Notes under the pieces: model-generated | Databases searched by the model: none | What the model was told of the DNA's origin: nothing | The model's input: the letters and a program-made list of their open reading frames with translations, nothing else | NCBI GenBank assembly: GCA_963733675.1 | Contig: CAVTET010000003.1 | Coordinates: 288,001-352,000 of the forward strand | Length of the DNA stretch: 64,000 bases | Reading direction: 5' to 3' | Source of the DNA: an uncultured Methanosarcinaceae archaeon | GTDB lineage: Archaea; Halobacteriota; Methanosarcinia; Methanosarcinales; Methanosarcinaceae | Part shown: positions 5,392 to 50,432 of the stretch, in pieces | How positions within the stretch are numbered: the first letter of the stretch is position 1 | Layout of the letters: each line of letters begins with the position of its first letter | Translations under genes and position numbers: made by a program

Positions 5392-5396
5392 TTATT

Positions 5397-26279: not shown

Positions 26280-26304
26280 TTGTTAGCTATGTTTACCCTA
26301 TCGC

Positions 26305-32573: not shown

Positions 32574-33296
32574 GATCTTTAGAACATAATTAGAACATAA
32601 AATTTATGCGGTTGAACTAAGAATCAACAGTGGTAAATATTTAACTTCCAAAAATAAAAAAAGTCTTTCACCATGGGATCTTTGGAGCAAGATCAAGTAT
32701 ACAGTTAAGACTCCCAGTTTTGGATGATCTTTTCGATTATATGAAAAAAAGAGGTTTTAAAGATTTCTCAAGTTAATCTTTTCTAATGAGCACAAAAAGA
32801 AGAGGACAAAAAGCAATCAGATAATTTTTTTATTGAATCAAGCTGAACGATGTGTTATGTACATCTGATAAAGCAAGTTCTTAGGAAAGTGCAAAAAAAG
32901 TGAAAATAAATGGTTGAGAAGTTAAAAAAGCATTTGTGGATCGTCATAAAACATATAACTCGATAGGGGGAATTGGGGAAATTTTATCAAGTATCTGAGC
33001 TTAGTTAGTGGAGTATCAAATAATACTAAAAGAATAGATATGGCCTTGATTAAAAATTAGTGAAGTACTATATTTTGCCGTACTTCATGTGAACTAAATT
33101 TATTGAGGCTTTATATCTAAAATCAGATAAATTCTCTATTTTTGCGGTTTTTCTATTGACTTTTTGCTAAACTAAGTGATTTGTATCTGGAGGGGACGAT
33201 GAAAATTTTTAATACTGTCCAAACATAATATATTTTTTTATTACATTGGTTGAACCATCTTTTCTAATTCCTGTTCCCACCTTCTAAGGACTATTT

Positions 33297-33347
33297 ACTA
33301 AATAGTTCATGGTAGAAATAAATAAAGACTATACAAAAGGTATATAA
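33297..33347 (+). promoter_or_regulatory. Promoter of repeat cassette A (ACTAWWTAGT box, BRE, TATA)
   Basis: ACTAAATAGT at 33297 and TATATAA at 33341, 44 bp apart, the same spacing as in copies B and C. Confidence 0.65.
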
Positions 33348-33367
33348 TAAAATAAATCTAACAATAA

Positions 33368-33577
33368 ATTAAAGGTTCTTAAATACCTTTACACAGAACT
33401 CTATGAGCTGCAGGTATCTTTGCCATGCTTTTTCAATGCAGCTCATAAGATTAACGTTTGGACATCTACCATCGTTGATGACCACCAGATTTAGAGGATT
33501 TCACAAAGACAGTAGCTGTAATATCTCCAAATAGGTCTTCGAGGGTAGGTATGGAAAAGCCTGTATTCAGGATCATG
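33368..33577 (+). ncRNA. Candidate structured RNA or 5' leader, copy A (long form)
   Basis: Stem-loop 1 (SL1) AAAGGT/ACCTTT. SL2 has an 11-bp perfect stem TATGAGCTGCA/TGCAGCTCATA. SL3 is imperfect. Homologous to 49445-49630. Confidence 0.55.
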
Positions 33578-33625
33578 AAAAAATTTTCAATCAAATCTTT
33601 AAAATATACCTAGTGAGGAAATTTC

Positions 33626-34006
33626 ATGAAAGTACTACTCGTAGATAATGATCCCTTATTTCTGGAGCTGTCAAAGACTTTCCTTGAAGTATTTCACGGA
33701 ATAACATCCGATACTGTGAATTCTGCAAGGGAAGCACTCGCCAAATTGGAGAAAGATTCCTATGATGTGATAGTTTCGGATTATGATATGCCTTTTATTG
33801 ATGGCATCACATTCTTGAGAAGTATACGTAATAAGAAAATTAGCATTCCTTTTATTCTTTTTACTGGATTCGGAAAAGAAGAAATCATGCACTTGGCAAT
33901 AGAAAATGGTGCAAATTCTTTTGTACATAAAACAAGTAACCTAAAAATCCAGTATTCAGAGCTGTCAAAGAAAATATTGCAGATTGTAAGTAGTAGTACA
34001 GGTTAG
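33626..34006 (+). CDS. Stand-alone response regulator receiver (CheY-like)
   Basis: VLLVDND, DVIVSDYDMP, DGITF, FILFTG and HK; ends in TAG. Confidence 0.92.
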   Translation: MKVLLVDNDPLFLELSKTFLEVFHGITSDTVNSAREALAKLEKDSYDVIVSDYDMPFIDGITFLRSIRNKKISIPFILFTGFGKEEIMHLAIENGANSFVHKTSNLKIQYSELSKKILQIVSSSTG

Positions 34007-34014
34007 CTAATTAC

Positions 34015-34668
34015 ACACAAAAATCGATTTTAAAACGATCCACTACCGAAAAATGCAAGAAATGATCTATTGACAAGTTGAAAACTACAAGCTTGCTTTA
34101 GAGTAAGAGGAGATGAAAACCTGAATCCATCAGAATTTGCATCGATTATGTTTACAATAGTACAGAATATAGATGAATACGAAGATTCAGATGCATACCA
34201 CGAAACTTTAGTAGAACTAATGAGCAATGCGATTAAGTCCGTTGCCGAGTGACCATAAAATAGTGACTGATAAAGAAAAGAACAAAATTTTCATGCTACT
34301 GGGCCTTCGACTCCCTTTTGATTTATGATTTTTGAAGCAGTAAGATGTAATTATTATACACGATTCTGAGTTTTTCTAGGTCAGATCATAAGCTGAGGGG
34401 ATAATAAAGTAAATAAAATCTTTAAATTGGTGTACCAAACAAATGCTAACTTTGAAAAGACTAACCTTCAAGAACCTAACCTTGAAAGAGTTAATCTTAC
34501 AAAGGCTAACATTAAAAGGGTTCTTGTAGATAGATACAAAACAAGTCGTAAAGAATGTCTTGAGAATATAATCGAAAAGAGGGGGAGACACATTTGATTT
34601 GACACATTTGATTTTAAACAAACATGTTTTTTCAGTCCAATTTGCTCTTCTGTTTACAAATCTAAATG
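34015..34668 (+). repeat. ~640-bp direct repeat, copy 1 (small-ORF relic plus pentapeptide-repeat relic)
   Basis: Colinear with 36236-36861. Contains ANFEK/TNLQE/PNLER/VNLTK pentapeptide codons at ~34444-34512. Confidence 0.85.
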
Positions 34669-34933
34669 TTGTTTCATTTCCATGATCACAATGTAGGATG
34701 CCCATTGCTTTAGGTGTGGATACCATTCCTTATAGTCGTGATATGCAATATAACTAATCCTTTACATATCTATTTTTGCCACAACTAGAATGTAAAGTCA
34801 TCATCATTTGCGATCGATTATTGTTATTGTACACAATGGTGTTGCTGATGTTGTCAACAAGTCTCCAACCTCACTCCCCAAATTTTGATAATATTATAAA
34901 CGTTTAATTGCCTAAATACAAATTTAAACCACC

Positions 34934-35022
34934 GAGGATTCTGATGAACCTTTCATTTTCACGAGTAATCTAGATATCATATCTAAGCATATGACAAAAT
35001 TTAGGGACTGATAAAAATCCTC
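34934..35022. repeat. MITE-like element copy
   Basis: GAGGATTCTGATGAACC...GGGACTGATAAAAATCCTC, 89 bp. Confidence 0.65.
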
Positions 35023-35229
35023 TATAGTGTCATATAGTACGTATTTTTATACTTCAAGTACATAATGTCTACATTAATTCCACTGGAAGTTAATCACAAT
35101 CAATCAAAAACCTAGTAATAATAAATAATCTTTCATTTTATCATTTTCGACATGTTTCATTTATACATTCATATATTGTTGCAGAATATAAATTGCATAG
35201 AGATGAATAAAGATATTCAAGTAATTTAT

Positions 35230-35784
35230 ATGATCCCAAGAAAAGCTTTTGTGACAAAAGGTACCGGAGTTCATAAGGCCAGATTAGCATCTTTTGAGCT
35301 TGCATTGAGAGCTGCAGGAATAGAGAAATACAACCTTGTATGTGTTTCAAGCATTCTACCTCCCAATTGCAAAATTATATCTAAAGAAGAAGGACTTTTA
35401 AAGCTAAAACCTGGTGGCATTGTTCATTGTGTACTTGGAAGGAACGATGCCAACGAACCACATCGTTTGATGGCTTCAGCTATAGGAACTGCTGTTCCAG
35501 TGAATGAAGAAAATTACGGCTATATTTCTGAGCATCATTCTTTTGGAGAAGAAGAAATTATTGCGGGAGAATACGCTGAAGATCTGGCAGCAACAATGCT
35601 TGCAACGACGCTCGGCATAGAATTTAATGCTGAAATGGCCTGGCATGAGAGAGAACAGGTATACAAAGCTAGCGGGTATATCTTTGACTCATTTCATATT
35701 TGCCAGACTGCAAAAGGTGACAAAGATGGTAAATGGACAACGGTTGTAGCAGCAATGGTCTTTGTTACTACAGACTATAGATAA
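35230..35784 (+). CDS. pdaD: Pyruvoyl-dependent arginine decarboxylase
   Basis: MIPRKAFVTKG, SFELALRAAGIEKYNLVCVSSILPP (SS autocleavage site), YGYISEHH and WTTVVAA. Start assigned by family pattern. Confidence 0.93.
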   Translation: MIPRKAFVTKGTGVHKARLASFELALRAAGIEKYNLVCVSSILPPNCKIISKEEGLLKLKPGGIVHCVLGRNDANEPHRLMASAIGTAVPVNEENYGYISEHHSFGEEEIIAGEYAEDLAATMLATTLGIEFNAEMAWHEREQVYKASGYIFDSFHICQTAKGDKDGKWTTVVAAMVFVTTDYR

Positions 35785-36235
35785 ACTCCAATCTTTGGCT
35801 GTTTGTTTATAATATCTACATAAGCAATTTGTTGAAATCTGAAGTTTATCGAAATTCTCCACATACATTTCCCATGTTCAAATAAAATGTGGAGAAATTC
35901 TTATGCCCATTGTTTTCAATAATCTAATTCACAACTCTTTCTCGGTCAAATGTGATAAGTGCTGATTCTTTGAGCAGGGCCACCTACTTTAGAGACTTGT
36001 TGAAACTTTTGTTTCGATTGAAACTTTTGTTCAGAAACAAATTTTCATATAATAAATATTAAATAAAGAATCTGAATAATTACATTATCTGTATTAGGGA
36101 TTTAGATTGAATCCTTATTGATGTGTTTTGGACCCGAAATATCTCTCTTCAAAAACACAGATTTTACATCAGGATTGGCTTAAAATGAATGTGAGAACGC
36201 ATTAATAATCATTAAAAGTAAGATAGTTGATTAGA

Positions 36236-36861
36236 ACACATAAAAATTGATTTTAGAACTATTGCTACCGAAAAATGCAAGAAATGATTTATTGACAAGT
36301 TGAAAACTGCAAGCTTGCTTTAGAGTTAACAGGAGATGAAAAACCTGAATCCATCAGAATTTGCGTCGATTATGCTTACAATAGTACAGAATATAGATGA
36401 ATACAAAGATCCAGATGAATACCACGAAACTTTAGTAGAAATAATGAGCAATGTGATTAAGTCCGTTGCCGAGTAATCATAAACTAGTGACTAATAAAGA
36501 AAATGACAAAATATTCATGCTCAGAGGTCTTCGATTCCCTTTTGGTTTATGACGTTTTGAAGCAGTAATATGTAATTGTTATACACGGTTCTGAGTTTCT
36601 CCGGATCAGATAATAAGCTGAGGGGATAATAAAGTAAATAAAATTTTCAAATTGATGCAACAAACAAATGCTAACCTTCAAGAACCCAATTTTGAAAGAG
36701 TTAATCTTAAAAAGCAGCATTAAAGGGTTTTCCTAGATAGGTATAAAGAAAGTCGTAAAGAATTTCTGAGAATATAACCAAAAAGGACTGCAGACCGATT
36801 TGATTTTAAACAAACAAGTTTTTTCAACCTAATTTGCTTTTCTGTTTTCAAATATAAATGT
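36236..36861 (+). repeat. ~630-bp direct repeat, copy 2
   Basis: Colinear with 34015-34668. Confidence 0.85.
36336..36476 (+). CDS. Possible 46-aa small protein, or the C-terminal relic of a longer gene
   Basis: AGGAG immediately before the ATG; MKNLNPSEFASIMLTIVQNIDEYKDPDEYHETLVEIMSNVIKSVAE. The paralogous frame is conserved in repeat copy 1. Confidence 0.35.
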   Translation: MKNLNPSEFASIMLTIVQNIDEYKDPDEYHETLVEIMSNVIKSVAE

Positions 36862-37140
36862 AATTAAATCTAGTTATATTTCATTGACTATCAAAACCTT
36901 TAAACGGATTCTCTATCAAATTGCATGCAACGACCCCCTTAGTCACAAAATCAACTTTTTTGACATTTTAGACCAACCTTATCCTCTAAGCTAATAAAAT
37001 AAAAGAGCTCACATTTTGGAATTTACGCAATAATCGATCAATATCATCTCTTTGTGTTTATATAACTCTACAAAAATCTGCTGCGGATACTGGTGCAAGG
37101 ATATTGGATGGTCCAAAGATCAGGACTTGATAATTTTCTT

Positions 37141-37305
37141 ACTATTTAGTTAAAGTTAGTGCTATTTAGAGTATATGCAAAAAGTATATAACAAATCAAA
37201 CGGGGTTATAATTAATAGGTTTCCCCACTTCTAGTAGAGACTTTCCATTGGGCTGTAGGTAATTTCCCCCGCAGCTCATAATATCAACTTTTCTGACATT
37301 TTAGA
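37141..37305 (+). ncRNA. Candidate structured RNA cassette, copy B (promoter plus short form)
   Basis: ACTATTTAGT at 37141, TATATAA at 37185. SL2 TGGGCTGT/GCAGCTCA with a C-rich loop, followed by ATCAACTTTTCTGACAT. Confidence 0.5.
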
Positions 37306-37498
37306 TAGCTTGCTCACGTACGCTAATTAAATGAAGTAGATTTGACCCATTCTGGGGAGATTTCAGGCATTTTCTTGAGTAGAGGAGGGGTATTTTCTTC
37401 ATTGGGTAGATTATAACCATGTGTAGGGACTGAGAATTAATCAGTTCATAATGAGCTTGATCGGCTTCATCATGAAACTAATGTTATTTAATATATAT

Positions 37499-37665
37499 AC
37501 TAATTAGTTCAAGTTATTATTATTTAGTATATATGCAAAAACTATATAATAAATCAAATATATTTATAATTCATAGGTATTGCTCATACCTTACAATAGA
37601 CTTTCCGACAAGCTGCAGGCATCTCTTCACCTGCAGCTAACAAGATCAACTTTTTGGCATCTAGG
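37499..37665 (+). ncRNA. Candidate structured RNA cassette, copy C (promoter plus short form)
   Basis: ACTAATTAGT at 37499, TATATAA at 37543. SL1 AGGTAT/ATACCT; SL2 AGCTGCAGG/CCTGCAGCT; followed by AGATCAACTTTTTGGCAT. Confidence 0.55.
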
Positions 37666-37708
37666 ATCAGCCAGATCATTTAAATTAATAAAAAAAACTA
37701 AGTAATTT

Positions 37709-37918
37709 ATGGCTTTCGACGATGCGGTGGTTGTTATTTACATGCTCGATGACAAAATAAAGGCAAAACAAGCAGTACATATTATGGGTACTGGTATAGT
37801 TGGCGGTGCATTTTGGGATATTTTGATAGGAATATTTGCTTTGTTTCTCTTAATCGCGGAATGGACTGAAGATAAGGCATTCGAGAGATTAAACAAGTTC
37901 AAAGGATTGATTAAATAA
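37709..37918 (+). pseudogene. DUF1269-like membrane protein, internally deleted
   Basis: DDAVVV...KIKAKQAV...GIVGGAFWDILIG joined directly to ALFLLI...TEDK. Confidence 0.6.
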
Positions 37919-38556
37919 AAGCCAACCCATCGAAATCTGCTCAATCAATCTTAGTGAAGATTACTATTAAGAATATTTTCGTGGGTTGAATAATTGGCTT
38001 ATCCTGAAATATAATTTTCAATCCGTGAGTGTCTTTAAATTTGCGAGTTTACAGAAAAAATAGCTTGCTGTCAATCTGCTTAATTAAGTTAAATCACAAT
38101 CATAAATAGAAAAATTCCAAAAGGTCATTGCCATGGTTCACAAGATTAGGATTACATGCATCTAGTAATGTTTAGTTATATTTATTAATATATTGACTAT
38201 TTGCAAAAGGCATATATTGAATCATATCCAACTAAATATTATGATATATAAATGCACTATAACATAAATCCTGGAATAAAATATTTTAGTGTAACTATAC
38301 ATTGCTATATACCTGAAAATGAAAGCTTATCAAGAAGCTGAATTAATAGATACCCCAAGCAGAAGGATCTTAGATCTTTATTTACTCAATCTTAAGATAA
38401 TAGATCTTAAGTAAGACCTTTATATTACATAGGTCCTATTCATGGAGCTTTTCAGCTACTTCTAATATTTTCTTATGTCCAAGCCTTTGCTCGTATTCTG
38501 GATCATGACTAAATTTTCAAGCGAAGCTTCAAAATATAATCTAGGGAGGGAATTTC

Positions 38557-38724
38557 ATGAAAGTGGTACTCGTATATGATGATCTCTTATTTCATAAGCT
38601 GTCAAATAATTTCCTAGAAGTATTTCACGAAATAACATCCAATATTGTGAATTTTGCAAAGGAAGCACTCATTAAATTGTAGAAAGATTCCTATGCTATC
38701 ATAGTTTCGGATTATGATTATACC
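38557..38724 (+). pseudogene. Truncated duplicate of the 33626 response regulator
   Basis: MKVVLVYDDLLFHKLSNNFLEVFHEITS...; internal TAG; truncated after SDYD. The upstream ~65 bp are also duplicated. Confidence 0.85.
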
Positions 38725-38931
38725 TTTTTAGTACGATATACTCTGTGATCAAGGCTGAAATCTTGTTTAATCTGATAGTAATACTTTATATTTTTGTGAT
38801 ACCTTTACTTGTGCACCATTGTTTGAGCAATTTGAGAATATATTTTAGAATGTTAAACTATAGAGATAGTGCATAAGAACTTATAAATTCATTTAGCTCC
38901 GTAGAGGGTCAAACTATGGAGAGAATCAATC

Positions 38932-40206
38932 ATGGAAGGTTCATGGTATTACTACAAATATCGCCGGTTCATAAAATGGTTGGGTTTATACTTGGCACTT
39001 GCTGGGCCAGGCATAATTGTGATGGTAGCGGATAATGATGCAGGGGGTATCACAACCTATGCTGCAACAGGAGCCAAATTTGGCTTTAACTTAATCTGGC
39101 TCTTGGTACTACTTGGCCCAGTAGCATATGTTGTTCAGGAAATGACTGTGCGATTAGGCGCGGTCACCAAGCGAGGACATGCAGAAGCTATATTCGATGC
39201 TTTTGGCTCTTTTTGGGGCTGGTTCTCGCTAATAGACTTGGGCATCTTGGATTTTCTTACGATGGTAACTGAGTTTATAGGAATGACAGCTGCTCTACAG
39301 ATATTTGGCGTGCCGCCTATATTAACGATAATTGGTGTCTCCATCTTGATGATCTCAATATTCATTCACGGAAGATACTGGACATGGTAAAAGATAGTAC
39401 TCCTTTTCTGTGTGCTCAATCTGATCTATATTCCTGCGATTCTGCTTATTCACCCCAATTTTAGCGATGTTACCAAAGGTTTGATTCCAAGTATTCCCAT
39501 AAACGGGTTCACAGGTGATTTTTTCTTCTTTTTCATGGCGAATATAGGAACTACCATAGCCCCCTGGATGATATTCTTCCAACAGAGCTCTGTAGTAGAT
39601 AAGGGTATGACTGAGAAAGATATTTCCTTTGGAAAATTCGATACTGCAGTTGGTGCATTCTTTACAGTATTAGTTGCAATAGCGTGTGTAATTATCACAG
39701 GCACGTTGCTCTTCAAGCCCGGTGGAATAGATATCGAAAGTGCTGCTCAAGCTGCAATTGCGATTATGGGCAGCTCCCCAATCGTTGGTTCTGCTCTTGC
39801 CATCGGACTCTTCGATGCCGGACTTCTTGGTGCTATGTGCATATCATTGGCAAGTTCATGGGCTATGGGTGAGGTTTTTGGATGGGCTCATTCTATCAAC
39901 AACAAGGTTTCAGAGGTACCTATGTTCTATGCCTTTTATTTCCTGAGCTTGATCTTCGCGGGCATAGTTGTAATAACCCCAGGAGCTCCATTGGTGTTGA
40001 TAACTCTTTTCGTGCAGGTGGTAGCTGTTACTCTTCTTCCTGCAGCTCTGGTTTTTCTGCTACTTCTGCTAAACAATGAAGAGATGATGGGGAAATATAA
40101 GAATACCCTTACACAAAATATTATGGGTTTTTTAATTGTATTTACTATAATTATTGTCTCTACTCTTTACGCCTTAAGCGTGATCTTCCCGGAGATGTTT
40201 AAATGA
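38932..40206 (+). pseudogene. NRAMP-family (Nramp-related Mg2+ transporter-type) divalent cation transporter with a nonsense codon
   Basis: GPGIIVMVADNDAGGITTY, QEMTVRLG and IGTTIAPWM. One in-frame TAA at 39388-39390, probably from GAA. Confidence 0.88.
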
Positions 40207-40254
40207 GCGTAGATAACATGGAAAACTATCAGGAGACGAAAAATATGGTAGACT

Positions 40255-40458
40255 ATGTTGATTGACAGATGTGAGAAGGGAAAGATCAGCCATGTGCTAA
40301 GAGGATGGAGAAAAGCAGTAAACGATATAAACAAAAAATACAGCAAGCCACGATTGAAGATGACACCTTTGGTCAGGTTTTCACTCTTTGCTCTCAGACT
40401 TTATCTAATAATGTTGGTTGTTATATTAAGTTATAAATTCTACACAATGGTGAGGTAA
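40255..40458 (+). CDS. Small membrane protein in the NRAMP-MgtE operon; start uncertain
   Basis: KYSKPRLKMTPLVRFSLFALRLY followed by a hydrophobic helix; sits between operon genes. Confidence 0.65.
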   Translation: MLIDRCEKGKISHVLRGWRKAVNDINKKYSKPRLKMTPLVRFSLFALRLYLIMLVVILSYKFYTMVR

Positions 40459-40473
40459 GCTGGAGGCAGATAT

Positions 40474-41748
40474 ATGAAAGACGAATCAAATAACAACAAA
40501 ACTGAAAGCATCCTTTTTTTGAGTGAGGTGATGAATGCTAAAGTCCTCCTTAAAGGCAAAAAAATAGGAAAGCTCTTGGACCTGATCATACTTGAAAAAC
40601 ATAAGGCTGCAGAGGTCACATACGTAGTAATAAGTCGACCTTTTGGTTATCCTTCATTAGTAGTACCATGGAATAATGTCAGTTCATTCAATGAAAAGTC
40701 TGTAACTATAGATATCGATGATGTAGAAAAGTTTGCATACAAAATTCCCGAGGGATTTATTCTTCTGAAGGATTACATTCTAGATAAGAAGATTTTAGAT
40801 TTAGAGGATACTGAGGTTGAGGTTGTCTACGATATCAAGATGGTTATGAGTAAAAACAAACTTTATATTACTGATGTAGACCCCTCCAAAAATGCGCGTT
40901 ATCGTAGGCTAGGTCTTGATAAATTTACTCATTTGATTCTCAAGGATAGTGATAAAAGTGAGGACGAGCTTATTCCATGGTCATACGTCCAAGCTCTACC
41001 CTCCAATATTGGAAGCTTTAAGGGAGATGTAAAGTTAAATATACTGAAAGAGAAGCTAAACGATCTTCCACCTGTGGATATTGTGGAAATTTTGGAGGAT
41101 TTGGATCACGATCAGAGGCTGACTGTTATCAATCAGCTCGAAGAAGAGCATGCATCTGATACCTTGGAGGAAATTAGTCCGAATATGCAAAGGGAGATTA
41201 TCTCCTCTCTGACTAAGGAAAAAGTTGCATACTTGATTGATATGATGACTCCGGGCCAGGCGGCTGATGTACTGTCGGCTTTGACTTTGGAGGATCAAGA
41301 AGCTATAATGGAACTGATGGATGAAGAAAATCTCAATAAAATAAAATCTATCCTTGAGACGCGACAGGATACGATAATCAACCTCATAACTGAGAGATAT
41401 CTAAAAGCTCAGCCTGATGAAACAGTAGAGATTGTGGAGAATGCGTACCCCAAAAGAGCAAAAGGTAAAGATGAAATAATGTACATCCACGTAACCGATA
41501 AGGATAATACGCTATTGGGTGTGATTGATGTGAAGGAGCTTCTTCAGGCAGATAGTCAGGCACTTTTAAAGGACATCATGAATAAAAATGTCATAACCTT
41601 GGATAAAGAGAGTAGTATTGGAGAAGCCACGAAGATGTTCTCTAGATACGGCTTCAGATCGCTTCCCGTAACGGATAATGACTATAAAATAGTTGGAGTT
41701 GTCAGTCAACGAGATGTCGTGAAGCTAACACTTCACTTTTCGGAATGA
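40474..41748 (+). CDS. PRC-barrel / MgtE N-terminal / CBS-pair protein (soluble MgtE-like regulator)
   Basis: ILDKKILDLEDTEVEVVYD, LPPVDIVEILEDL, MTPGQAADVL and a CBS pair (YGFRSLPVTD). Confidence 0.88.
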   Translation: MKDESNNNKTESILFLSEVMNAKVLLKGKKIGKLLDLIILEKHKAAEVTYVVISRPFGYPSLVVPWNNVSSFNEKSVTIDIDDVEKFAYKIPEGFILLKDYILDKKILDLEDTEVEVVYDIKMVMSKNKLYITDVDPSKNARYRRLGLDKFTHLILKDSDKSEDELIPWSYVQALPSNIGSFKGDVKLNILKEKLNDLPPVDIVEILEDLDHDQRLTVINQLEEEHASDTLEEISPNMQREIISSLTKEKVAYLIDMMTPGQAADVLSALTLEDQEAIMELMDEENLNKIKSILETRQDTIINLITERYLKAQPDETVEIVENAYPKRAKGKDEIMYIHVTDKDNTLLGVIDVKELLQADSQALLKDIMNKNVITLDKESSIGEATKMFSRYGFRSLPVTDNDYKIVGVVSQRDVVKLTLHFSE

Positions 41749-42066
41749 AAGACGATTTTCTTGATACCAACTACCCAGAGTAATCGCTGAAGATTTATAG
41801 TAAGAGATCTAAAAGGATTTGAGGGAACAAAAGAAAGTTTAGAAATTTAGTTCTGATTTTTTTCTCCCAATTTTCTGCAGATCTTTCATCAAAAGTAGTA
41901 TTTTTCACGATTTTTCTCATTGAACATTATAGAGTACCTACTTTTCCCTATACCATAGACCCAGGTTTTCTATTCTATATGGTGTCAAGATCTATTTTGT
42001 GACTGAGCTCTCTTAGGAAAGCTTCAGTTATTCAGAACATCGACAGTTATATAATAAAAAATTCAC

Positions 42067-42924
42067 TCAAATTTTTAGTTTTTGACGGTAATGTCTGCGG
42101 ATTAAAACTGCTATGGTGTTCAAAATAAGTACGATAATCAATAAAACCAGAGCTGTTCCATATTGAATAGACCTGGTTTTAGTAATATTCGTTCCTGCAG
42201 TGGCCAGCACAAAGAGATGGTAGGGAAGGGCCATGAACTGGGAATAGATTGATTCAGGCAGCTTTGGCAAGAAGTATGCAGCTCCTGTTAAAAGGATAGG
42301 AGCTGTTTCACCTGCAATCCTTCCTATGCTCAGGATAGAACCGGTAACCATTCCTGGGATGGCTGATGGTAGTACCACATGCCTGATGGTCTGCCATTTG
42401 CTAATTCCAAGTGCAAGGGAGGATTCTCGGTACTCACTAGGAACTGCAAGAAGTGCTTCCTCGCTTGAACGAATAATCACGGGGAGAACTAGGAGAGAAA
42501 GGGTAAGAGATGCCGAAAGTATAGAAGGGCCAAAACCAAAGTATTTAACAAACAGTGCCAACCCGAAAAGCCCAAAAACCACAGATGGAGTTCCGGCTAA
42601 ATTACTGATTGCCATTTCTATAGGCCAGGTTATTAAATTGTTTTCTGCATATTCTTTAAGGTAGATAGCAGCCATAATTCCCATTGGAAGGGCTATAGAC
42701 ATTGATCCTATGATAAGTAGTAATGTGCCCACAATTGCTGGATAGATCCCACCTTGAGTCATCATATTGCTGGGCATTTCAGTAAGGAACTCAATGCTAA
42801 TTGCATTATATCCATTGTAAATAATATAGCCAAGGATAATTAGAACAAACCCGACTACTGTCAATGCTGCAAGGCTGAGTAGTGCAAAAGCAATTTTTTC
42901 ACTCGTTTTTGCATTAAATCTCAC
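42067..42924 (-). CDS. pstA: Phosphate ABC transporter permease PstA
   Basis: GGIYPAIVGT, LAGTPSVVFGLFG, RESSLALG, GRIAGETAP and ALPYHLF motifs. Confidence 0.95.
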   Translation of the reverse strand: MRFNAKTSEKIAFALLSLAALTVVGFVLIILGYIIYNGYNAISIEFLTEMPSNMMTQGGIYPAIVGTLLLIIGSMSIALPMGIMAAIYLKEYAENNLITWPIEMAISNLAGTPSVVFGLFGLALFVKYFGFGPSILSASLTLSLLVLPVIIRSSEEALLAVPSEYRESSLALGISKWQTIRHVVLPSAIPGMVTGSILSIGRIAGETAPILLTGAAYFLPKLPESIYSQFMALPYHLFVLATAGTNITKTRSIQYGTALVLLIIVLILNTIAVLIRRHYRQKLKI

Positions 42925-42926
42925 GC

Positions 42927-43817
42927 TTATTCCACCTTAAAACTATATCTTGTTTTGATATAATCCGCAATTAGGTTAATCAGGAGAGTCATGATGAAAA
43001 GCACTGATCCTACTGCAAAGAGTGCATGAAACTGGGTACTTCCTTGGGAAACTTCTCCCATTTCAAGTGCAATGGTAGCAGTCATTGTCCTCACAGAATG
43101 CAGAAAGCCCCCTGGAAAAGAAGGGATTATTGCAGCGTTTCCGGTTACCATCATAAGCGTCATAGTCTCCCCTATAGCTCTACCCAAGCCCAGCATTACT
43201 GCCGCTGAAATTCCAGAAAACGATGCAGGGATTATGACCTTATACATAGTTTGCCATCTTGTAGCTCCAAGAGCAAGTGACCCTTCCTTAATAATGCTGG
43301 GTATCGAACTGATAGCATCCTCTGAGATAGTTATAATTGTGGGAAGTGCAACAAGCCCAACCATAATAGAACCTGTAAGGGCGGTTTGTCCCGTAGGCAA
43401 GTTGAATGTATTTTGTATATAGGGGACCAGCACAACGAGTCCGAAGAATCCAAATACAACAGAAGGAATCCCTGCGAGAATCTCGATAAAGGGTTTCAGG
43501 AAATCTGCAACCTTTGGATGTGCGACCTCGGAAATGTATACTGCACAAGCGATTCCCAAAGGCACTGAAAAAATAATTGAGCCAGCAGTTACGAGAAGGG
43601 AACCAAGAAACAAAGGTAATAACCCAAACTGTTGGTGTATGGATGTCGGGTACCAAAACTTTCCTGTGAGAAAGTTCCAAATTGAAATATTTTTAAATAG
43701 AAGTAAACTGTCACTGAATATAAAATAGCACATCAGTAAAAGGACGATGACTGTAAGGGCACTGACCAAAAAGAACATTGATTCAATTACTTTTTCCTTA
43801 TGATTCCTGTTAGACAT
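42927..43817 (-). CDS. pstC: Phosphate ABC transporter permease PstC
   Basis: FGLLPLFLGS, LAGIPSVVFG, EGSLALGATRWQT, GRAIGETM and RTMTATIALE motifs. Confidence 0.95.
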   Translation of the reverse strand: MSNRNHKEKVIESMFFLVSALTVIVLLLMCYFIFSDSLLLFKNISIWNFLTGKFWYPTSIHQQFGLLPLFLGSLLVTAGSIIFSVPLGIACAVYISEVAHPKVADFLKPFIEILAGIPSVVFGFFGLVVLVPYIQNTFNLPTGQTALTGSIMVGLVALPTIITISEDAISSIPSIIKEGSLALGATRWQTMYKVIIPASFSGISAAVMLGLGRAIGETMTLMMVTGNAAIIPSFPGGFLHSVRTMTATIALEMGEVSQGSTQFHALFAVGSVLFIMTLLINLIADYIKTRYSFKVE

Positions 43818-43929
43818 ATTTTCCTCTTGAAATAACCTCTACTTATTTACTTCTTTAGTGGATGTATCCTACTCTACTCGTCAAATATATAACTAAACTT
43901 CCATGGCATCTAGTGATTAAAAACTCTGT

Positions 43930-44580
43930 TTAGTTTAATTTGACGCGCTCAGAAGTAGCAAGATAAACTACACTTTCACAAATATTACAGCAGTGATCAG
44001 CAATCCTTTCAATGTAGCGAATCATGAAAAGTAAATATGTGGCTTTGGAAATAATATTTTTATCTTTTGCCATCATTTCTATCAACTCAACCTGAACTGT
44101 GTAAAAAAGCTTATCTACTTCATCATCTCGAGCTGCTATCTCTCTTGCGAGTTCTTGGTCACGTGTCTCGAAAGCCTTGAGGGAATTCTCAAGCATGTAT
44201 GCTGCAATATCTGCCATTTTTTTAGAATCTACAAGAGGTTTTATATGACCACCTTCGATTTTTCTGGGAATTTTTGCAATATTTATTGATAGCCCCATAA
44301 TCCTTCTGAGATCTGCTGAGATCTTGAGAGCGGATATTACAAGCCGAAGATCACTGGCTATCGGCTGCTGAAGCGCGAGTAAATCAAGGATAGAAACTTC
44401 AATTTCGTCTTCAAATTCATTCACTTTTGCTTCAAAGTCAAGTACTTTTTCAGCCATTTTGATATCTAGATCTATAACTGCCACCATCGAATCGCTGAAC
44501 ATCAATTCAACTGTCTTTCCGAATGAAAGCACCGCCTCCTTGAGCATTTCCAAATGTTTTAGGTATCTTTCTCTCGCCAT
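43930..44580 (-). CDS. phoU: Phosphate signalling protein PhoU
   Basis: LALQQPIASDLR, DDEVDKL and ERIADHCCNICE motifs. Confidence 0.95.
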   Translation of the reverse strand: MARERYLKHLEMLKEAVLSFGKTVELMFSDSMVAVIDLDIKMAEKVLDFEAKVNEFEDEIEVSILDLLALQQPIASDLRLVISALKISADLRRIMGLSINIAKIPRKIEGGHIKPLVDSKKMADIAAYMLENSLKAFETRDQELAREIAARDDEVDKLFYTVQVELIEMMAKDKNIISKATYLLFMIRYIERIADHCCNICESVVYLATSERVKLN

Positions 44581-44587
44581 TTTTTAA

Positions 44588-45385
44588 TCACCCAAACCTA
44601 CCGGTGATGTAATCCTCAGTAAGTTTTTCTCGAGGATTATGAAAAATCTTTCTGGTTTGGTCGAATTCAACCAATTCCCCCATTAAGAAAAAGCCCGTAT
44701 AGTCTGATACTCTGGCTGCTTGTTGCATATTATGAGTTACAATTACTATGGTATAATCTTTTTTAAGGTCCATGATAAGCTCTTCAATCTTTGAAGTGGA
44801 AATTGGATCAAGAGCGCTGCATGGTTCATCTAAAAGAATAATTGTGGGCCTTACTGCTAGAGTCCTGGCTATGCAGAGTCTCTGCTGCTGCCCTCCACTT
44901 AGGGAAAAAGCAGGAGACTTGAGCCTTGATGATGTTTCCTCCCAGAGTGCAGCTGACTGAAGTGAACTCTCGACAAGACTATTTATATCTTTTTTAGTTA
45001 CACCATGGATACGCGGACCATATGCGATATTATCATAAATAGACATTGGAAAGGGGTTTGGTTTTTGGAAAACCATTCCTACCTTTTTCCGGAGGTCAAC
45101 AACATCCACGCCTTTTCCGTAGATATTTTTGCTTTCAATCAGAATTTTTCCTTCAACTTTGCAGTTTTTGATAAGATCATTCATTCTGTTTAAGCAACGT
45201 AGGAAAGTGGACTTTCCGCAACCTGAAGGACCTATAAGAGCTGTTACACTGTTTTTAGTTATCTGCATGGAGATATTCTTAAGAGCCTGTTTTTCTCCAT
45301 ACCATAAATTGAGGTTTTCTATTATTATATGGGATTGAGATATGTTTTGGGGTTGAGTTGATACATTTAATAACGTTTCAGTCAT
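44588..45385 (-). CDS. pstB: Phosphate ABC transporter ATP-binding protein
   Basis: [50 protein letters not shown] and YITGRFG motifs. Confidence 0.97.
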
Positions 45386-45542
45386 CTAGAACCTCAGTTT
45401 CATCTATATTGTATAAAAATATGAACAAGTTTAGATATGAGTAGTGTAATTTTTCTAAATAAGGGAATGGTTCAATGAATTTGGATGAAATTTCATCGTT
45501 TTTTAAAAATTGGAGAAGAACCAGAAAAAACTAAAAAACTCT

Positions 45543-45803
45543 TTATTTATTATTTTTTAACATCTCAGTTAGCTCGCTTTTTATAAGATTCTGCAGATAC
45601 ACATGGTTATAGCACCTTTTTGTGCATCTTTCGTCCTTTAAGCACATGTTGACAAGTTTTTGATGTGTATTTTCGTCTATACATGCGATATCGAGAAGTA
45701 CAAAAACTGCGGTAATCGCTAGTTCGATTTCTTTTATTAAATCAATATCTTGTTTCACTTCTCCTGCGAATTCGTTAAGTTCAGGGTTTATGCTAAAATC
45801 CAA
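45543..45803 (-). CDS. Hypothetical protein upstream of pstB
   Basis: 86-aa ORF with a TTG start preceded by GAGGAG. Confidence 0.6.
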   Translation of the reverse strand: MDFSINPELNEFAGEVKQDIDLIKEIELAITAVFVLLDIACIDENTHQKLVNMCLKDERCTKRCYNHVYLQNLIKSELTEMLKNNK

Positions 45804-46218
45804 CTCCTCTATATTCTTAACTCCCCTTTATTTTCCGTTTGATTTCGACGCGTTTCAATCCAATATCTGAAATACAAGTTTTTATGAACTTGTCTTCATT
45901 CCATTATTCTAAATTATACTTCCCTCTGATTTAGTATATATTTTCTGTATATATTCTAAATAGTACTAACTTAAACTAAATAAACTAAAATTACGTGGTT
46001 CTGACCCCACAAACTATGACAGTGACAATAAATAACTGAAGCATTGTGGTTATCAAACGACATTGAATGTCACAAATAGTCGTGTGGAATATATAAGGAA
46101 AATTATAAAACAATAAAGTTATTCATTCTAAACTATAGCACGTTGAAAATACTGACTTTGACAAAATGCTTAAATATTATTATGACGATTATGTATATAG
46201 AAACTAAACAAAAGCTAT

Positions 46219-47688
46219 ATGATTTTTCAAAAGTATTTATATTATGAAAAAAATATGAATCAGATTGAGCATGGGGCAATAACCAGAATGCTACTCACCT
46301 ATAAAATAAAGCATAATCGGGATTTTTCGGAGGAACTCCAAAAAGCTCGACAGGTTGTTGAATTTTGTATCAAACATAGGATTCAAAATCGAAATCTTGA
46401 TTCACTTCCCACTCCAGAATCTGTTTCTTATGATTATAATTTTCCTGTTTCTCCTTTCCATTCAAAGCAATTGGGAAATTATGAGAAAAATCTGAAGAAG
46501 AGGCAGAGAAATAGGACGAAAGTAAATTCTCTGTCTGTATCTAATTTATTTCCAATGTCTGATTTTCTTTATCCCGGAGATGTTAAGCACATAGGCTTGA
46601 AGTCAACGATTTCCAGCCCGATTCTTAGGAAATATTCCCGAAACCAGGACCTCAAATCCGTTAAGAATGTGAAATTAATCATCCCTTCGAAAGCTGTTAG
46701 TGTATTAAAGAAGGAGAAAACTCTCATAATCCCTTGCCTGAAACTTCTACTTAACTATCATTTTTCCAATAATTTTAACAAAATCTCCCAGATTGAAATA
46801 GATAACATCTATGCTTATGTGGCAGTTGTCTTTCCAAACGAAGAACCCAAAAGTTCCGAGCACCACATAGGAGTTGATCTCAATACCAGAGGACATATTG
46901 CTGTTGTAGCAGATCCAGAGTCGGGTAAAGTTTGGAAATTAGGGAAAATGCGCTACCATATACATAAAAAATACGAGAATATAAAAAAGAGACTCTATGA
47001 TATGGGCAAATACAAACAACTAAAAGCTGTAAGAAATAGGGAAAAAAATATTGTAAATAATCTAAATCATAAAATTAGCAGAAAGATTGTGAATGTTGCC
47101 CTGTATAATGGGTGTGGAATCAAACTCGAAAATTTAAATGGACTCCGGAAACTCAATGTCAAAATTGGAGATGCAGAAGATGGTGAGAAAAATAAACACG
47201 AAAACAAAAAAAGGGAACATAAAAGAGATAACAGCAGAAACAAAGAAATAAACGAAAAGTCTCTCAAAAACAAAAGTAAACTCCTAAAACACTTGTGTCT
47301 AGATGAATACTCCCTGAACAGCTGGTCTTTTCATCAGCTTCGTCAATTTATTGAATACAAAGCCAGGCTGCTCGGAGTAGAGGTAGCTTATATTGATCCC
47401 CATGCAACTAGTAAGAAGTGTAGTCGCTGTGGACATACAGGCAACCGACACAGTAAACAATTTGAATGTCCACACTGTGGTCATGTTGATCATGCCGATG
47501 TCAATGCCGCCTTTAACATAGCGTTGACGCCAAAAAGCAATGGTCAATTCTCTGCAGAAAGAGATGCAGAGAAAGGGAATACTGACCCCCCTCTAAGAAT
47601 CCTGGGCCGTACAATTTTCAGTAAACGGATTGCCAGAAAAGAAACTTCTCCACAGTTTGCGTGGGAAGTATGTCAGTTTTTAGCCTAA
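46219..47688 (+). CDS. tnpB: TnpB-family RNA-guided endonuclease with two large insertions; the true start may be ~46288 (MLLTYKIKH)
   Basis: RuvC-I IGVDLN, RuvC-II IKLENL, YSLNSWSFHQL, zinc finger CSRC/CPHC and RuvC-III HADVNAAFNIA. Confidence 0.92.
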   Translation: MIFQKYLYYEKNMNQIEHGAITRMLLTYKIKHNRDFSEELQKARQVVEFCIKHRIQNRNLDSLPTPESVSYDYNFPVSPFHSKQLGNYEKNLKKRQRNRTKVNSLSVSNLFPMSDFLYPGDVKHIGLKSTISSPILRKYSRNQDLKSVKNVKLIIPSKAVSVLKKEKTLIIPCLKLLLNYHFSNNFNKISQIEIDNIYAYVAVVFPNEEPKSSEHHIGVDLNTRGHIAVVADPESGKVWKLGKMRYHIHKKYENIKKRLYDMGKYKQLKAVRNREKNIVNNLNHKISRKIVNVALYNGCGIKLENLNGLRKLNVKIGDAEDGEKNKHENKKREHKRDNSRNKEINEKSLKNKSKLLKHLCLDEYSLNSWSFHQLRQFIEYKARLLGVEVAYIDPHATSKKCSRCGHTGNRHSKQFECPHCGHVDHADVNAAFNIALTPKSNGQFSAERDAEKGNTDPPLRILGRTIFSKRIARKETSPQFAWEVCQFLA

Positions 47689-47695
47689 GAAGCAT
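47530..47695 (+). ncRNA. Putative omega-RNA overlapping the tnpB 3' end; element right end at ~47675, followed by the guide
   Basis: Hairpin ACTTCTCCAC-AGTTTGC-GTGGGAAGT then ATGTCA. TnpB omega-RNAs are known to come from the element's right end. Boundaries are inferred. Confidence 0.55.
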
Positions 47696-47732
47696 TTTTA
47701 GACTTTTGAACTCTAAGGAGAGCATTCTTCTT

Positions 47733-47771
47733 CCCCGGAGGGCATCAATCCGGTATGGTAGGGTAGTTCAC
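47733..47771 (+). mobile_element. Second, different IS605-type right end
   Basis: Hairpin CCGGA...TCCGG, ending GGGTAGTTCAC; same TAGTTCAC terminus as at 30328 and 49360. Confidence 0.45.
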
Positions 47772-48089
47772 TATATGTGTCTGAAGATATCTGTTCTAAC
47801 ATTGACCATTGAGAACCCGTAACTTTCTGATCGTACAGAGAGATCCTGCTCATGAAGTGCAGCTGGAAACTATCAAACTAAATTCAACTCTTTTTTGCGA
47901 AATGTTTGTTTCGAATTGATGCGGTTAGTATTAATATAAATATACTGTTATATATAGTACTATTTAGCCTTACTATAGCTATTATGATAACACCTATATA
48001 TCTAAACGATTAACTAATTAGTAATTAATAATTGCTATATGTAAATCCAAAATCATATATGTCACAAAGAAATTATAAGAAAGATTTCT

Positions 48090-48743
48090 ATGCTTCAAAA
48101 TGGAAAAATTAAAGGCTTAATCTTTGATTGCTACAAAACCCTTATTGATATCAGGACCGATGAGCGAAGCTGGGAAACAAATAAAAGGGTAAGCGATTGG
48201 TTACTCTATAATGGGGTGCGTATTAGCCCTGATAGATTAAGGGAAGAATACAAGTGGAAAGTCATAGGTAGGCTGGGCAATTCGGATCAAAAGCACCCAG
48301 ATATTCGTATCGAAGAAATTTTTGCTGAGATTTGTGCTGATTATGCTTTTAGAAAAATAGATCCATATTGGCTTGGGATTGAAACCGCGAAAGCTTTCAG
48401 AACTGCGTCCTTAAGAAAACTGAATGTCTACCCCCAAAGTCTGCGTTTACTTGAAAAATACCGAAGTGTACCTAAGTGCATTGTTTCTAACGCTCAGAGA
48501 GTTTTTACGGAACAAGAACTTCGCTTTTTTAGCTTATACGACCGCTTTAATTTCACAATTATGTCTTCTGATTATTATATCAAGAAACCCGACCCCAAGC
48601 TCTTCAAGATGGCTCTTGATCGACTTGGACTTGAGCCCTGGGAAGTGCTTTCTATTGGTGATACGCCGGAAAATGATATTTATCCACCTCAAAGTCTTGG
48701 GATGAATGCAATGCTTATAAGTGATGCCTGGAAGTATGGATAA
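48090..48743 (+). CDS. HAD-superfamily hydrolase
   Basis: LIFDCYKTL (motif I variant), VSNAQ, KKPDP and IGDTPENDI. Confidence 0.9.
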   Translation: MLQNGKIKGLIFDCYKTLIDIRTDERSWETNKRVSDWLLYNGVRISPDRLREEYKWKVIGRLGNSDQKHPDIRIEEIFAEICADYAFRKIDPYWLGIETAKAFRTASLRKLNVYPQSLRLLEKYRSVPKCIVSNAQRVFTEQELRFFSLYDRFNFTIMSSDYYIKKPDPKLFKMALDRLGLEPWEVLSIGDTPENDIYPPQSLGMNAMLISDAWKYG

Positions 48744-49325
48744 ATCCCACAAAAATGATTAATGTTTCAATAAATCATACATCAGTAAATCATTTAATTT
48801 AAAGGATTATGAGATATCTTTGATTTTTTCCTTCGTAAGAATCCTGTTTAAATTTTTTCAGATAATTTTGTTGCCAATGGACGTTTAATTTCCCCCACCC
48901 TGGTCAGTTTAGATGTATTCACATTGTGATATAAATTTTATTTAATATTTAATGAATCCACTTGAGACTATTGGTAGATATTTCTCATTTCTACATCCGA
49001 TTTCTTTTTTTAACCGTAATTTTCCTCCTCAATGTTAATTGTTGTATAATGATGGAATATTCGAGATATTATCGGTTGATGGCCGTATAAAATAATTAAT
49101 GGAATAATCGCAATTATATGAAAAAAGGAAGTGGCGTGCACATTGATTAATCCAAAAAACAAATTCAATAATTATATCTTTAGCAAATCAAACTGTTGGA
49201 AGGGACGTTCTATTCTGTAGTCATAAAAAAAGTGAAAAATTGTATTATCTAAACTTTCCAAAAAAAGAAAAATACGATGGATGGGCTTAGGGACTTATTT
49301 TCAACAGAGAGCGATATGAACCATT

Positions 49326-49360
49326 AAGCCACTTAGCCTTTAGTGAGTGGTGTAGTTCAC
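49326..49360 (+). mobile_element. Solo IS605-type right end
   Basis: AAGCCACTTAGCCTTTAGTGAGTGGTGTAGTTCAC; resembles the 30328 end. Confidence 0.65.
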
Positions 49361-49373
49361 CTAAGGACAAGGT

Positions 49374-49630
49374 ACTAATCAATTAGGTTATAACTATATA
49401 GAATATGTGCAAAAACTATATAAAGTATTGAATCTCTTTATAATTTAGAGGTGCTCAAGCACCTTTAAACAAACCTTCTATCGGCTGCAGGTATCTCTTC
49501 ACTTGCAGTCCACAAGATTAACTTTAGGACATTACTGTCGTTGATTATCACAAGATCTAGAAGATTTCACATAGACAGTAGTATCTAATTAAATATGCAT
49601 TTGAGGTTCAGGTAGGAAAAGTCCTGTATT
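49374..49630 (+). ncRNA. Candidate structured RNA cassette, copy D (promoter plus long form)
   Basis: TATATAA at 49417. SL1 AGGTGC/GCACCT; SL2 GGCTGCAGGT/ACTTGCAGTC; SL3 TACTGTC/GACAGTA. The 3' motif CCTGTATTCAG..CATGA is shared with copy A. Confidence 0.6.
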
Positions 49631-49715
49631 CAGAAACATGATTATATGGCTTCTTTTAATTCCCACTTGACACAAGACAAACAAAAATTTTGGGGTAAAG
49701 AAAAGAGGTTATGGA

Positions 49716-50432
49716 ATGAATGAGATTGAAGAAGCTAACTTTAACGAAGGTAACTTTGAAAGAGCTAATCTTAAAAGAGCTAACTTTAAAGAGTATAAAC
49801 TTGAAAGATCTAATCTTATCGGAACTGACTTTATAAAAGCTAACCTTAAAGAATTCTACTTTGAAGGAGCTAACCTTAGGGAAGCTAATCTTGAAGGAGC
49901 TAATCTTGAGGGGGCCAAACTTAGAGAAACTAATCTTAAATGGTGTAACCTTAGAGGAGCTAACCTTCATAAAGCTGATCTTAGAGAAGCAAATCTCAAA
50001 GAAACTAATCTTGAAAGAGCTAACCTCATAAGGGCCAACCTTATAAAGGCTAACCTGCAAGTAGCTGATCTTGGGGAAGCTAACCTTCAAGGGGCTAATC
50101 TTAGAGAAGTTAACCTTGAAGGAGCTGACCTTAATTGGGCTATACTCAGAGGGGCTAACCTTGCAGGGGCTAACCTTGCAGGGGCTAATTTTACAGGGGC
50201 TAACCTTGAATGGGCTAACCTTATAAAGGCTAACCTTCAAAGGGCTAACCTTACATGGGCTAACCTTGAAGGAACTAACCTTGAAGGAGCTAATTTTGAA
50301 GGAGCTAACCTTAGTGGGGCTCATTATTTATCATTTGGGCAGCTTTCTAAAGTGAAAACACTTCGTAATACAAAATTAAATGGAGATATCTTCAAATCAC
50401 TAAAAGAGCAACATCCCACCCTTTTTGAATAA
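49716..50432 (+). CDS. Pentapeptide repeat protein
   Basis: About 40 tandem A(N/D)L-x-x units; C-terminal cap QLSKVKTL. Confidence 0.93.
   Translation: MNEIEEANFNEGNFERANLKRANFKEYKLERSNLIGTDFIKANLKEFYFEGANLREANLEGANLEGAKLRETNLKWCNLRGANLHKADLREANLKETNLERANLIRANLIKANLQVADLGEANLQGANLREVNLEGADLNWAILRGANLAGANLAGANFTGANLEWANLIKANLQRANLTWANLEGTNLEGANFEGANLSGAHYLSFGQLSKVKTLRNTKLNGDIFKSLKEQHPTLFE

Follow-up and report, generated by a model that had tools for sequence, protein, structure and literature searches.

The cassette and its copies

The window analysed here is a stretch of 64,000 nt from the genome of an uncultured Methanosarcinaceae archaeon (positions 288,001 to 352,000 of contig CAVTET010000003.1), which is contained in DNA runs of soil and peat metagenomes, and the element under study is a cassette in which a promoter is followed by stem-loops. 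An initial annotation had described four copies of it, A to D (Table 1), each with a B recognition element and TATA box (BRE/TATA), a first stem-loop (SL1, weak in B), a second stem-loop (SL2) with a pyrimidine-rich loop, and an AGAT(T/C)AAC..GACAT linker. All these parts are present in the sequence, and A and D indeed have in common a longer 3' block that leads into a response-regulator gene and a pentapeptide-repeat gene, respectively, as identified by Pfam. The resemblance is far beyond chance: a profile hidden Markov model (HMM) built from copies A to D only recovers them with E values of 1e-35 to 1e-41.

The size of the family has to be revised. The search of the whole 3.9-Mb host genome (G000) with this HMM gives 61 places, of which 51 are close to full length. 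With a covariance model of the RNA part of the cassette (143 model positions, built on 44 copies) the number is again 61, 55 of these matches being distinct and the remainder assembly duplicates on contigs C13 and C2; "four-copy" was therefore the wrong scale. The 3' fragment that had been reported at about 36940 matches the family model over all of its positions and is therefore a degenerate whole copy, whose promoter is decayed and whose SL2 arms pair poorly. Beyond what had been annotated, the family amounts to about 60 copies here and is amplified in six genomes, its promoter is separable (two promoter modules without hairpins lie in the window, Table 1), and most of its copies do not stand ahead of a gene. 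As to the assembly duplicates, C13 carries the same cassette copies at both ends, inverted, and C2 repeats them exactly, which corresponds to an assembly duplicate or to a long terminal inverted repeat.

Table 1. Cassette copies, promoter modules and genes linked to them in the window (ORF, open reading frame; aa, amino acids; model, covariance model of the RNA part)
Feature	Position	Strand	Parts and assignment	Model match	Fold z
Copy A, long form	33297..33625	+	Pentamer array; BRE/TATA 33333-33347 (TATATAA 33341-33347); SL1 33371-33390; SL2 33402-33447; T-run weakened to TTT, then long leader reaching the response-regulator start	33359-33514, 65.4 bits	-3.54
Response-regulator receiver gene behind copy A, 126 aa	33626..34006	+	Pfam PF00072, E 1.6e-22		
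Degenerate whole copy	36840..37010	+		36871-37010, positions 1-143, 71.8 bits	
Copy B, non-coding "type 3" form	37141..37430	+	BRE/TATA about 37179-37191 (TATATAA 37185-37191); SL1 weak; SL2 37249-37279 with G-U pairs; then T4	37203-37342, 100.5 bits	-1.68
Copy C, top scorer against the family model	37499..37708	+	BRE/TATA about 37537-37549 (TATATAA 37543-37549); SL1 37575-37591; SL2 37611-37638; T5 37651-37655; GATC hairpin	37561-37704, 144.6 bits	-2.77
Hydrophobic small ORF directly 3' of copy C, 69 aa	37709..37918	+			
Promoter module without SL1/SL2	38161..38300	+	HMM match 38161-38234, E 2e-4; a different shared leader follows		
Promoter module without SL1/SL2	45913..45995	-	HMM match 45913-45982, E 6.2e-9		
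Copy D, long form	49374..49715	+	BRE/TATA 49411-49423 (TATATAA 49417-49423); SL1 49449-49464; SL2 49483-49510; T-run weakened to TTT, long-range helix, leader of about 270 nt	49435-49595, 92.1 bits	-4.49
Pentapeptide-repeat protein gene behind copy D, 238 aa	49716..50432	+	Pfam PF00805, E 5e-91		

From 5' to 3', a unit begins with about 30 bp of TTAGT/ACTAA-like pentamers, followed by the BRE/TATA, ATATATGC-AAAAA-G-TATATAA, by a conserved segment of 20-25 nt up to the likely start, by SL1, a 6-bp hairpin whose sequence differs among copies, by a spacer of about 20 nt and by SL2 (GCTGCAGG / CCTGCAGC), whose loop of 7-12 nt is mostly C/U-rich. Then come the ACAAGATCAAC linker, a T-run, GACATCTAA and a small hairpin formed by two GATC words. 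Among 47 distinct copies, conservation amounts to 80-90% in the pentamer core, the BRE/TATA, the SL2 stems, the linker and the T-run, to 50-70% in the SL1 stems and to 40-50% in the SL2 loop. The T-run holds at least 5 T in 62 of 100 copies, 4 T in 15 and fewer in 23; A, D and most of the pentapeptide-linked copies of other species have 1-4 T only. With its conserved BRE/TATA and its T-run, the unit thus has the elements by which its own promoter and a putative T-run terminator would bound a short RNA. The core is also dense in short palindromes of the kind typical of restriction or methylation sites, with two CTGCAG in SL2 and three or four GATC over a length of 70 nt.

The sequence 3' of the core falls into at least seven tail types plus 25 singletons. 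In one type, represented by copy C and five other loci (one of them broken), the tail is a hydrophobic ORF of 52-69 aa. In another (A, D and two more), a long leader connects the core to pentapeptide-repeat or response-regulator genes. A third (B and ten more copies) is non-coding, has a second hairpin and a T-run, and in most cases passes directly into the next unit; a family of 41-47-aa ORFs is found among the remaining types. Upstream of the pentamer array, about 110 nt are common to many copies and form two classes. The units are often arranged in tandem, two or three on one strand at intervals of 340-460 nt, both here and in a sister genome, and these arrays, limited to 2-3 units, occur at many loci; an integron would have a single long array of cassettes with attC-type imperfect palindromes next to an integrase.

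Conservation of the RNA structure

Pairing was counted for a stated structure composed of SL1, SL2 and the GATC hairpin (22 pairs), on two alignments. In the first one, a MAFFT alignment of 44 copies that was not fitted to the structure, 76.3% of the cells are paired, compared with 30-40% when the partners are slid by 1-3 columns, and two-sided changes are found in 15 of the 22 pairs. The second, model-fitted alignment contains 100 copies from at least 12 genomes; it leans towards the structure and its sequences are related, with 79.8% of the cells paired versus 34-41% after sliding. Double changes affect 19 of the 22 pairs, a number reached by 6 of 500 shuffles, and the double-changed cells number 95 versus 44 +/- 5 in the shuffles; since the related copies are not independent, these are counts and not probabilities.

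The main carrier of true compensation is SL1, where G-C is replaced by A-U in 16 cells and by U-A in 7. SL2 is mainly conserved, with G-U wobbles; as it varies little, its support comes mostly from conservation and from the G-U pairs. These G-U pairs number 253 versus 166 A-C mismatches, many of the G-U cases coming from one subfamily, and their excess fits an RNA read from the promoter strand. Furthermore, in eight reciprocal-best cross-genome pairs of copies the stems have changed at 30 of 351 sites and the loops at 23 of 127 (p 0.005). When ten copies are folded singly, the z values are -2.8, -1.7, -3.5, -4.5, -2.5, -4.0, +1.4, -4.1, -4.0 and -3.6, that is, -2.5 or below in eight of them.

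The novelty of the family with respect to Rfam, which had been put forward as conditional on a search, holds: Rfam 15 gives no match at the gathering score over the whole window, and none at E values up to 1 over nine copies.

Age and spread of the family

The covariance model was applied to 59 genomes of the genus (E up to 1e-4). Matches are carried by 24 of the 59, six with 27 to at least 54 matches and eighteen with 1-4, and no match is found in the other 35, nor in 16 genomes from other genera of the order. In G000, the best identity of a copy to another one of the same genome is 0.5-0.82, and its best cross-genome partner reaches 0.84-0.93; one same-genome pair in G066 attains 0.89. Copies A and D both have a syntenic orthologue in genome G019, with a mean column identity over leader and flanks of 90% and 89%, respectively, and no near-identical copies were found within a genome besides the assembly duplicates. 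With paralogues so diverged, closer partners across genomes and synteny at A and D, there is no sign of recent transposition. At the level of sequence comparison, these observations establish the family as old and vertically inherited.

The low-copy species bring out the gene-linked form of the cassette. The full unit (pentamers, BRE/TATA, SL1, SL2) precedes pentapeptide-repeat genes at L045, L046, L047, L050, L053, L115 and L121. At L043, L049, L055, L056 and L116-L118 it precedes a 46-aa zinc-ribbon ORF, behind which a HAD hydrolase is encoded. The sequence of SL2 is nearly invariant among these species. At the pentapeptide-linked loci, and at copy D and its orthologue, a conserved structured 5' untranslated region (UTR) thus precedes homologous genes in several species.

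SL2 and the T-run also occur without promoter or SL1. In three genomes (L044, L054, L060) they lie some 30 nt behind the stop of a PstS-like gene, and a 5.8-Mb genome (L119, L122) has them on their own. The position behind the PstS-like genes is the expected place of an intercistronic terminator or stabiliser. Of all parts of the cassette, SL2 together with its 3' flank and U-tract is therefore the one most widely retained, and it is used, as far as its position in these sequences indicates, where a terminator or a 3' stabiliser is expected.

A separable promoter in gene-poor surroundings

An HMM restricted to the pentamers and promoter finds 60 hits in the genome, 11 of which have no SL1/SL2 behind them. 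The similar promoter, as a module alone, precedes genes that are not homologous: Nramp, an ORF upstream of pstB and pentapeptide-like ORFs. Together with the RNA module it precedes the response regulator, the pentapeptide protein and the small peptides. Within about 1 kb upstream and on the same strand, the promoter module is found at three of the five Nramp loci here and at two of three in G019, for a chance expectation that we roughly estimate at 0.008 modules per Nramp locus. In four other genomes of the genus no Nramp was found, and the promoter would therefore have become attached to genes gained by this clade. This distribution fits promoter reuse, and a single regulator is likely. The pentamer array may resemble the operators of metal-dependent repressors.

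The context of the copies was described with crude genes, defined as ORFs of at least 110 aa. None of the 61 copies lies inside such a gene, and the intergenic span around them has a median of 2.4 kb, versus 0.53 kb genome-wide.

Family members in RNA libraries

Four metatranscriptome contig sets from related strains were placed on positions 33000-49720. An 871-nt contig from an RNA library covers 33396-34265, which corresponds to the leader of copy A from SL2 onward and to the response-regulator gene. In the bin 37464-38021, which holds copy C and its small ORF, the summed depth is 88, 16 and 48 in three runs, versus 0-10 in the flanking bins, and at 37624 a loose end links C, by its 3' half, with the 5' half of a different variant of the family. 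Three of the four runs leave the bin 34674-35231 empty, and the libraries are therefore not simply DNA; for the rest, an uncovered bin is not read as a silent one. Together with the compensatory changes, these contigs uphold the structured RNA family, with short and long forms, that the initial annotation had postulated; the anti-Shine-Dalgarno role that it had given to the SL2 loops is not supported, as discussed below.

The proposed model

In the model we propose, and which on balance we favour, the cassettes are self-contained archaeal transcription units that combine two separable modules and belong to an old family amplified in one clade. It starts from the repeat family itself, the anatomy of its modules, the conserved pairing, the age and distribution of the copies, the separable promoter and the presence of the family in RNA libraries. 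Module P, the array of about 30 bp of TTAGT/ACTAA-like pentamers together with the BRE/TATA, would be the operator and the promoter of one DNA-binding regulator, as a result of which all the units would form one regulon. Module R would correspond to the first 140 nt or so of the transcript: SL1 at the 5' end, the spacer of about 20 nt, SL2, ACAAGAUCAAC, the U-tract and the GAUC hairpin. The transcript would start about 25 nt after the TATA box, thereby placing SL1 at its very 5' end, as a protective hairpin.

The fate of the transcript would then depend on the U-tract. A long one (at least 5), situated about 12 nt after SL2, would probably lead to termination; U-tracts act as archaeal terminator signals according to PMC8716108. 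The product would be the short form, a sibling small RNA (sRNA) about 95 nt long that has a protective hairpin at its 5' end and, at its 3' end, a hairpin followed by a U-tail. When the U-tract is weak or read through, module R would instead become the structured 5' leader of pentapeptide proteins, of the response regulator or of the membrane peptides of 52-69 aa. SL2 and ACAAGAUCAAC would act as a recognition or termination element setting read-through or stability, most likely by way of a protein, which is a guess on our part. Any action in trans would be conjectural.

Several observations weigh against this model. RNAalifold finds no consensus structure on the gappy MAFFT alignment or on its gap-trimmed version, for which reason the structure tested was the stated one, that is, the SL1 and SL2 of the initial annotation completed with the GATC hairpin of the present analysis; it was written by hand and is not a computed consensus. 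The aligned sequences are akin and thus not independent, SL2 shows low variability, and many of its G-U cases belong to a single subfamily. The RNA data consist of contigs of related strains (92-99% identity), with possible DNA carry-over, and no transcript starts or ends are seen in them; as the contigs give no starts, ends or strand, transcription from the predicted promoters is what we infer. Concerning the leader function, the association of a weak T-run with a following ORF is not significant in this genome (7/14 versus 11/41, p 0.19). A same-strand gene is present for only 14 of the 46 copies having any gene within 1.5 kb downstream, from which it follows that most units stand alone and are not leaders, with nothing obvious in cis. 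Concerning the small RNAs, no trans targets were found through k-mer enrichment at translation starts.

An extension of the model, which we consider quite unlikely, would make of the pentamer array the signature of an ion-homeostasis regulon, in which one regulator would activate Nramp, the promoter upstream of pstB and some fifty sibling sRNAs or leaders. If true, it would be an archaeal counterpart of the Fur/RyhB-type circuits, with the sRNA arm amplified to about 60 copies.

Alternative explanations

Could the cassette be an ancient non-autonomous element, comparable to MITEs (miniature inverted-repeat transposable elements), with an outward promoter, its copies being selfish or decaying DNA and not a regulon? 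We judge this unlikely. It would account for a family that is dispersed and multi-copy in only 6 of the 59 genomes of the genus, whose copies lie in large repeat-rich intergenic islands and never within a crude gene, in tandem arrays and with mosaic flanks, and transposase relics are numerous in the genome (70 Y1_Tnp and 20 TnpB-domain matches). The copies, however, show no link with Y1: four of the 61 lie within 2 kb of the 63 listed Y1_Tnp relics, for a random mean of 3.6, and 482 of 1000 random placements reach four. A weak flanking inverted repeat of the TAATTAGTTTAAGT / ACCTAAGCTAATTA type, imperfect and of 12-25 nt, is present in three of five copies examined, but these regions are AT-rich and contain 3-27 inverted pairs each, and in the subfamilies the homology continues past the repeat. 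The flank alignments reveal neither sharp ends nor target-site duplications, the copies being too diverged for short duplications to survive, and near-identical copies are limited to the assembly duplicates. The conservation itself is concentrated in the promoter and the stems, the stems evolve more slowly than the loops, and the gene-linked copies are conserved across distant species.

A search for an empty site at C1:486299 met a mosaic of other repeats, in which the homology of four relatives starts 260 nt downstream of the copy. Another repeat family adjoins one cassette copy (L058:600-1260 = C1:485400-486060); it has dozens of copies, 66-83% identical, in four sister genomes. Most of the 70 Y1 matches are broken by stops, and two of them are in the window (4764-5398 and 25803-26286), inside a pair of 600-bp repeats that are 92-95% alike and have a GC-rich hairpin of their own.

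A second alternative takes the copies as leftover upstream regions of a decayed pentapeptide-repeat gene family, the hairpins having mattered only for the lost genes. The cassette does precede pentapeptide-repeat genes in other species, and the window contains decayed pentapeptide repeats and a response-regulator pseudogene beside its copies. This explanation has little chance of being right, as pentapeptide-like sequence is found within 1.2 kb downstream of only four of the 61 copies, once on the other strand, and the orphan copies keep their promoter and stems conserved.

In the reading of the initial annotation, the short forms would be trans-acting anti-Shine-Dalgarno sRNAs. The masking of ribosome-binding sites could be brought about by the SL2 loops or else by the GAUCACCU tail. 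The mechanism has a precedent in M. mazei sRNA41 and in loop 2 of sRNA154, according to the review PMC5867862, and most SL2 loops are rich in C/U. Nevertheless, no enrichment at starts is seen for the complement (7-mers) of the loop consensus, which is found there for 45 of the 2356 crude genes versus about 39 (38.8) expected, nor for the complements of the linker and spacer. In some copies there is GATCACCT, which is identical to the 16S 3' end of this genome (the 16S rRNA 3' terminus being GGATCACCTCCT), and the complement of this motif is enriched at starts (37 versus about 8 expected); yet the motif is exact in only 6 of the 55 distinct copies and half buried in the GATC hairpin in the fold, and in the rRNA locus the family HMM gives no significant hit. 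Such a role is hardly probable. Descent of the cassette from the 16S 3' end (helix 45 and tail) was also considered and rejected, the best HMM hit in the rRNA locus having an E value of 0.73 and lying elsewhere in the locus.

Finally, a ligand-sensing, riboswitch-like leader in the long form, for which the long conserved structured 5' UTR before homologous genes in several species and a T-run after SL2 that could serve as expression platform might speak, is the least probable of these explanations, since the same module stands before unrelated genes or before no gene at all, an SL1 unconstrained in sequence and an SL2 that is a plain hairpin with a variable loop leave little room for a conserved pocket, and Rfam gives no match.

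Neighbouring features of the window

The sequences around the copies contain several related remnants. Behind copy A, the segments 34043-34669 and 36265-36861 form a segmental duplication of decayed pentapeptide-repeat sequence, 76-97% identical in pieces, the second duplicate ending at the degenerate cassette (36871). The second hairpin and T-run in the tail of copy B are common to ten other copies. The 69-aa ORF behind copy C matches no Pfam family; its relatives stand behind copies at five other loci (one broken), and another one lies at C4:357123.

The forward promoter module without hairpins is located upstream of a response-regulator pseudogene (38557-38718), which is 86% like the gene behind copy A and has an in-frame stop, and of the Nramp gene (38932-40206), which a stop splits into ORFs of 152 and 264 aa. 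The leader that follows this module (38235-38300) recurs in the regions of C3:241621, C4:405100, C1:1150371, C1:109670 and C1:746000; such a second shared leader after the promoter module is thus found at five or six loci, two of which are the Nramp-linked modules, and it may be a separate RNA element. The reverse-strand module is upstream of an 86-aa ORF (45543-45803) and of pstB (44588-45385). An intact 489-aa TnpB/Cas12f-like ORF (46219-47688, +) lies between the pst genes and copy D. Before the annotated start of the pentapeptide gene behind copy D, in the region 49630-49740, a 25-codon ORF is homologous to the N-terminus of pentapeptide proteins from other species; it is one base out of frame here and interrupted by a stop in G019.

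Comparison with known systems

The literature on Methanosarcina repeats, MITEs, mobile promoters, sRNA41 and pentapeptide leaders yielded nothing that describes the cassette, it being understood that the supplements of the M. mazei sRNA and small-protein papers could hold related transcripts. The text of the spRNA/asRNA preprint (10.1101/2025.10.28.685009) gives no sequences for comparison with the family. The closest archaeal RNAs are sRNA41, sRNA154 and sRNA162 of M. mazei, which belong to the same genus and are small stem-loop RNAs with their own promoters; some M. mazei sRNAs act through loops on ribosome-binding sites, according to PMC5867862. The cassette differs from them by its approximately 60 copies, instead of one, by its additional use as a leader and by the lack of support for pairing with ribosome-binding sites; no sequence or model relation was found, either in Rfam 15, which may or may not include these sRNAs, or with the covariance model, which leaves 35 of the 59 genomes of the genus without a hit. 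With the reused, putatively mobile promoters described in PMC3575422, the cassette has in common that one highly similar promoter stands before unrelated genes. It adds to them an operator-like array and, usually, a structured RNA, and most of its copies drive no gene.

Two bacterial systems are also comparable. The CiaR-dependent small RNAs (csRNAs) of Streptococcus are sibling sRNA genes under a common operator and promoter, each closed by a hairpin with a U-tail. The cassette resembles them as a set of paralogous candidate small RNA genes with a shared operator and promoter and with the same kind of 3' end, but its copy number is ten times higher and its host is archaeal. The Correia, BOX and REP/REPIN elements are structured intergenic repeats of bacteria that can supply promoters or terminators; like them, the cassette is dispersed, intergenic, hairpin-forming and amplified in a clade. 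It is distinguished from them by the complete promoter present in nearly every copy, and by the lack of clear terminal repeats, target duplications, recent copies and a linked transposase.

In conclusion, few archaeal regulatory RNAs are understood, and we know of none that forms a family this large. The cassette offers a defined operator, promoter and RNA module, which can be followed from 1-4 copies in some complete genomes of the genus to about 60 in the soil and peat clade. Should the units prove to be transcribed and co-regulated, they would provide a direct route to an archaeal regulator and to an RNA-binding or termination factor, and they would illustrate the spread of a promoter-leader cassette and its rewiring of genes such as Nramp. 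Should they be no more than old selfish repeats, they still account for much of the large gene-poor islands of these methanogen genomes. Promoter-bearing sibling sRNAs or leaders, with promoter reuse, are known from other systems; what is new is this family, notable for the number of its copies and for its modular construction in an archaeon.

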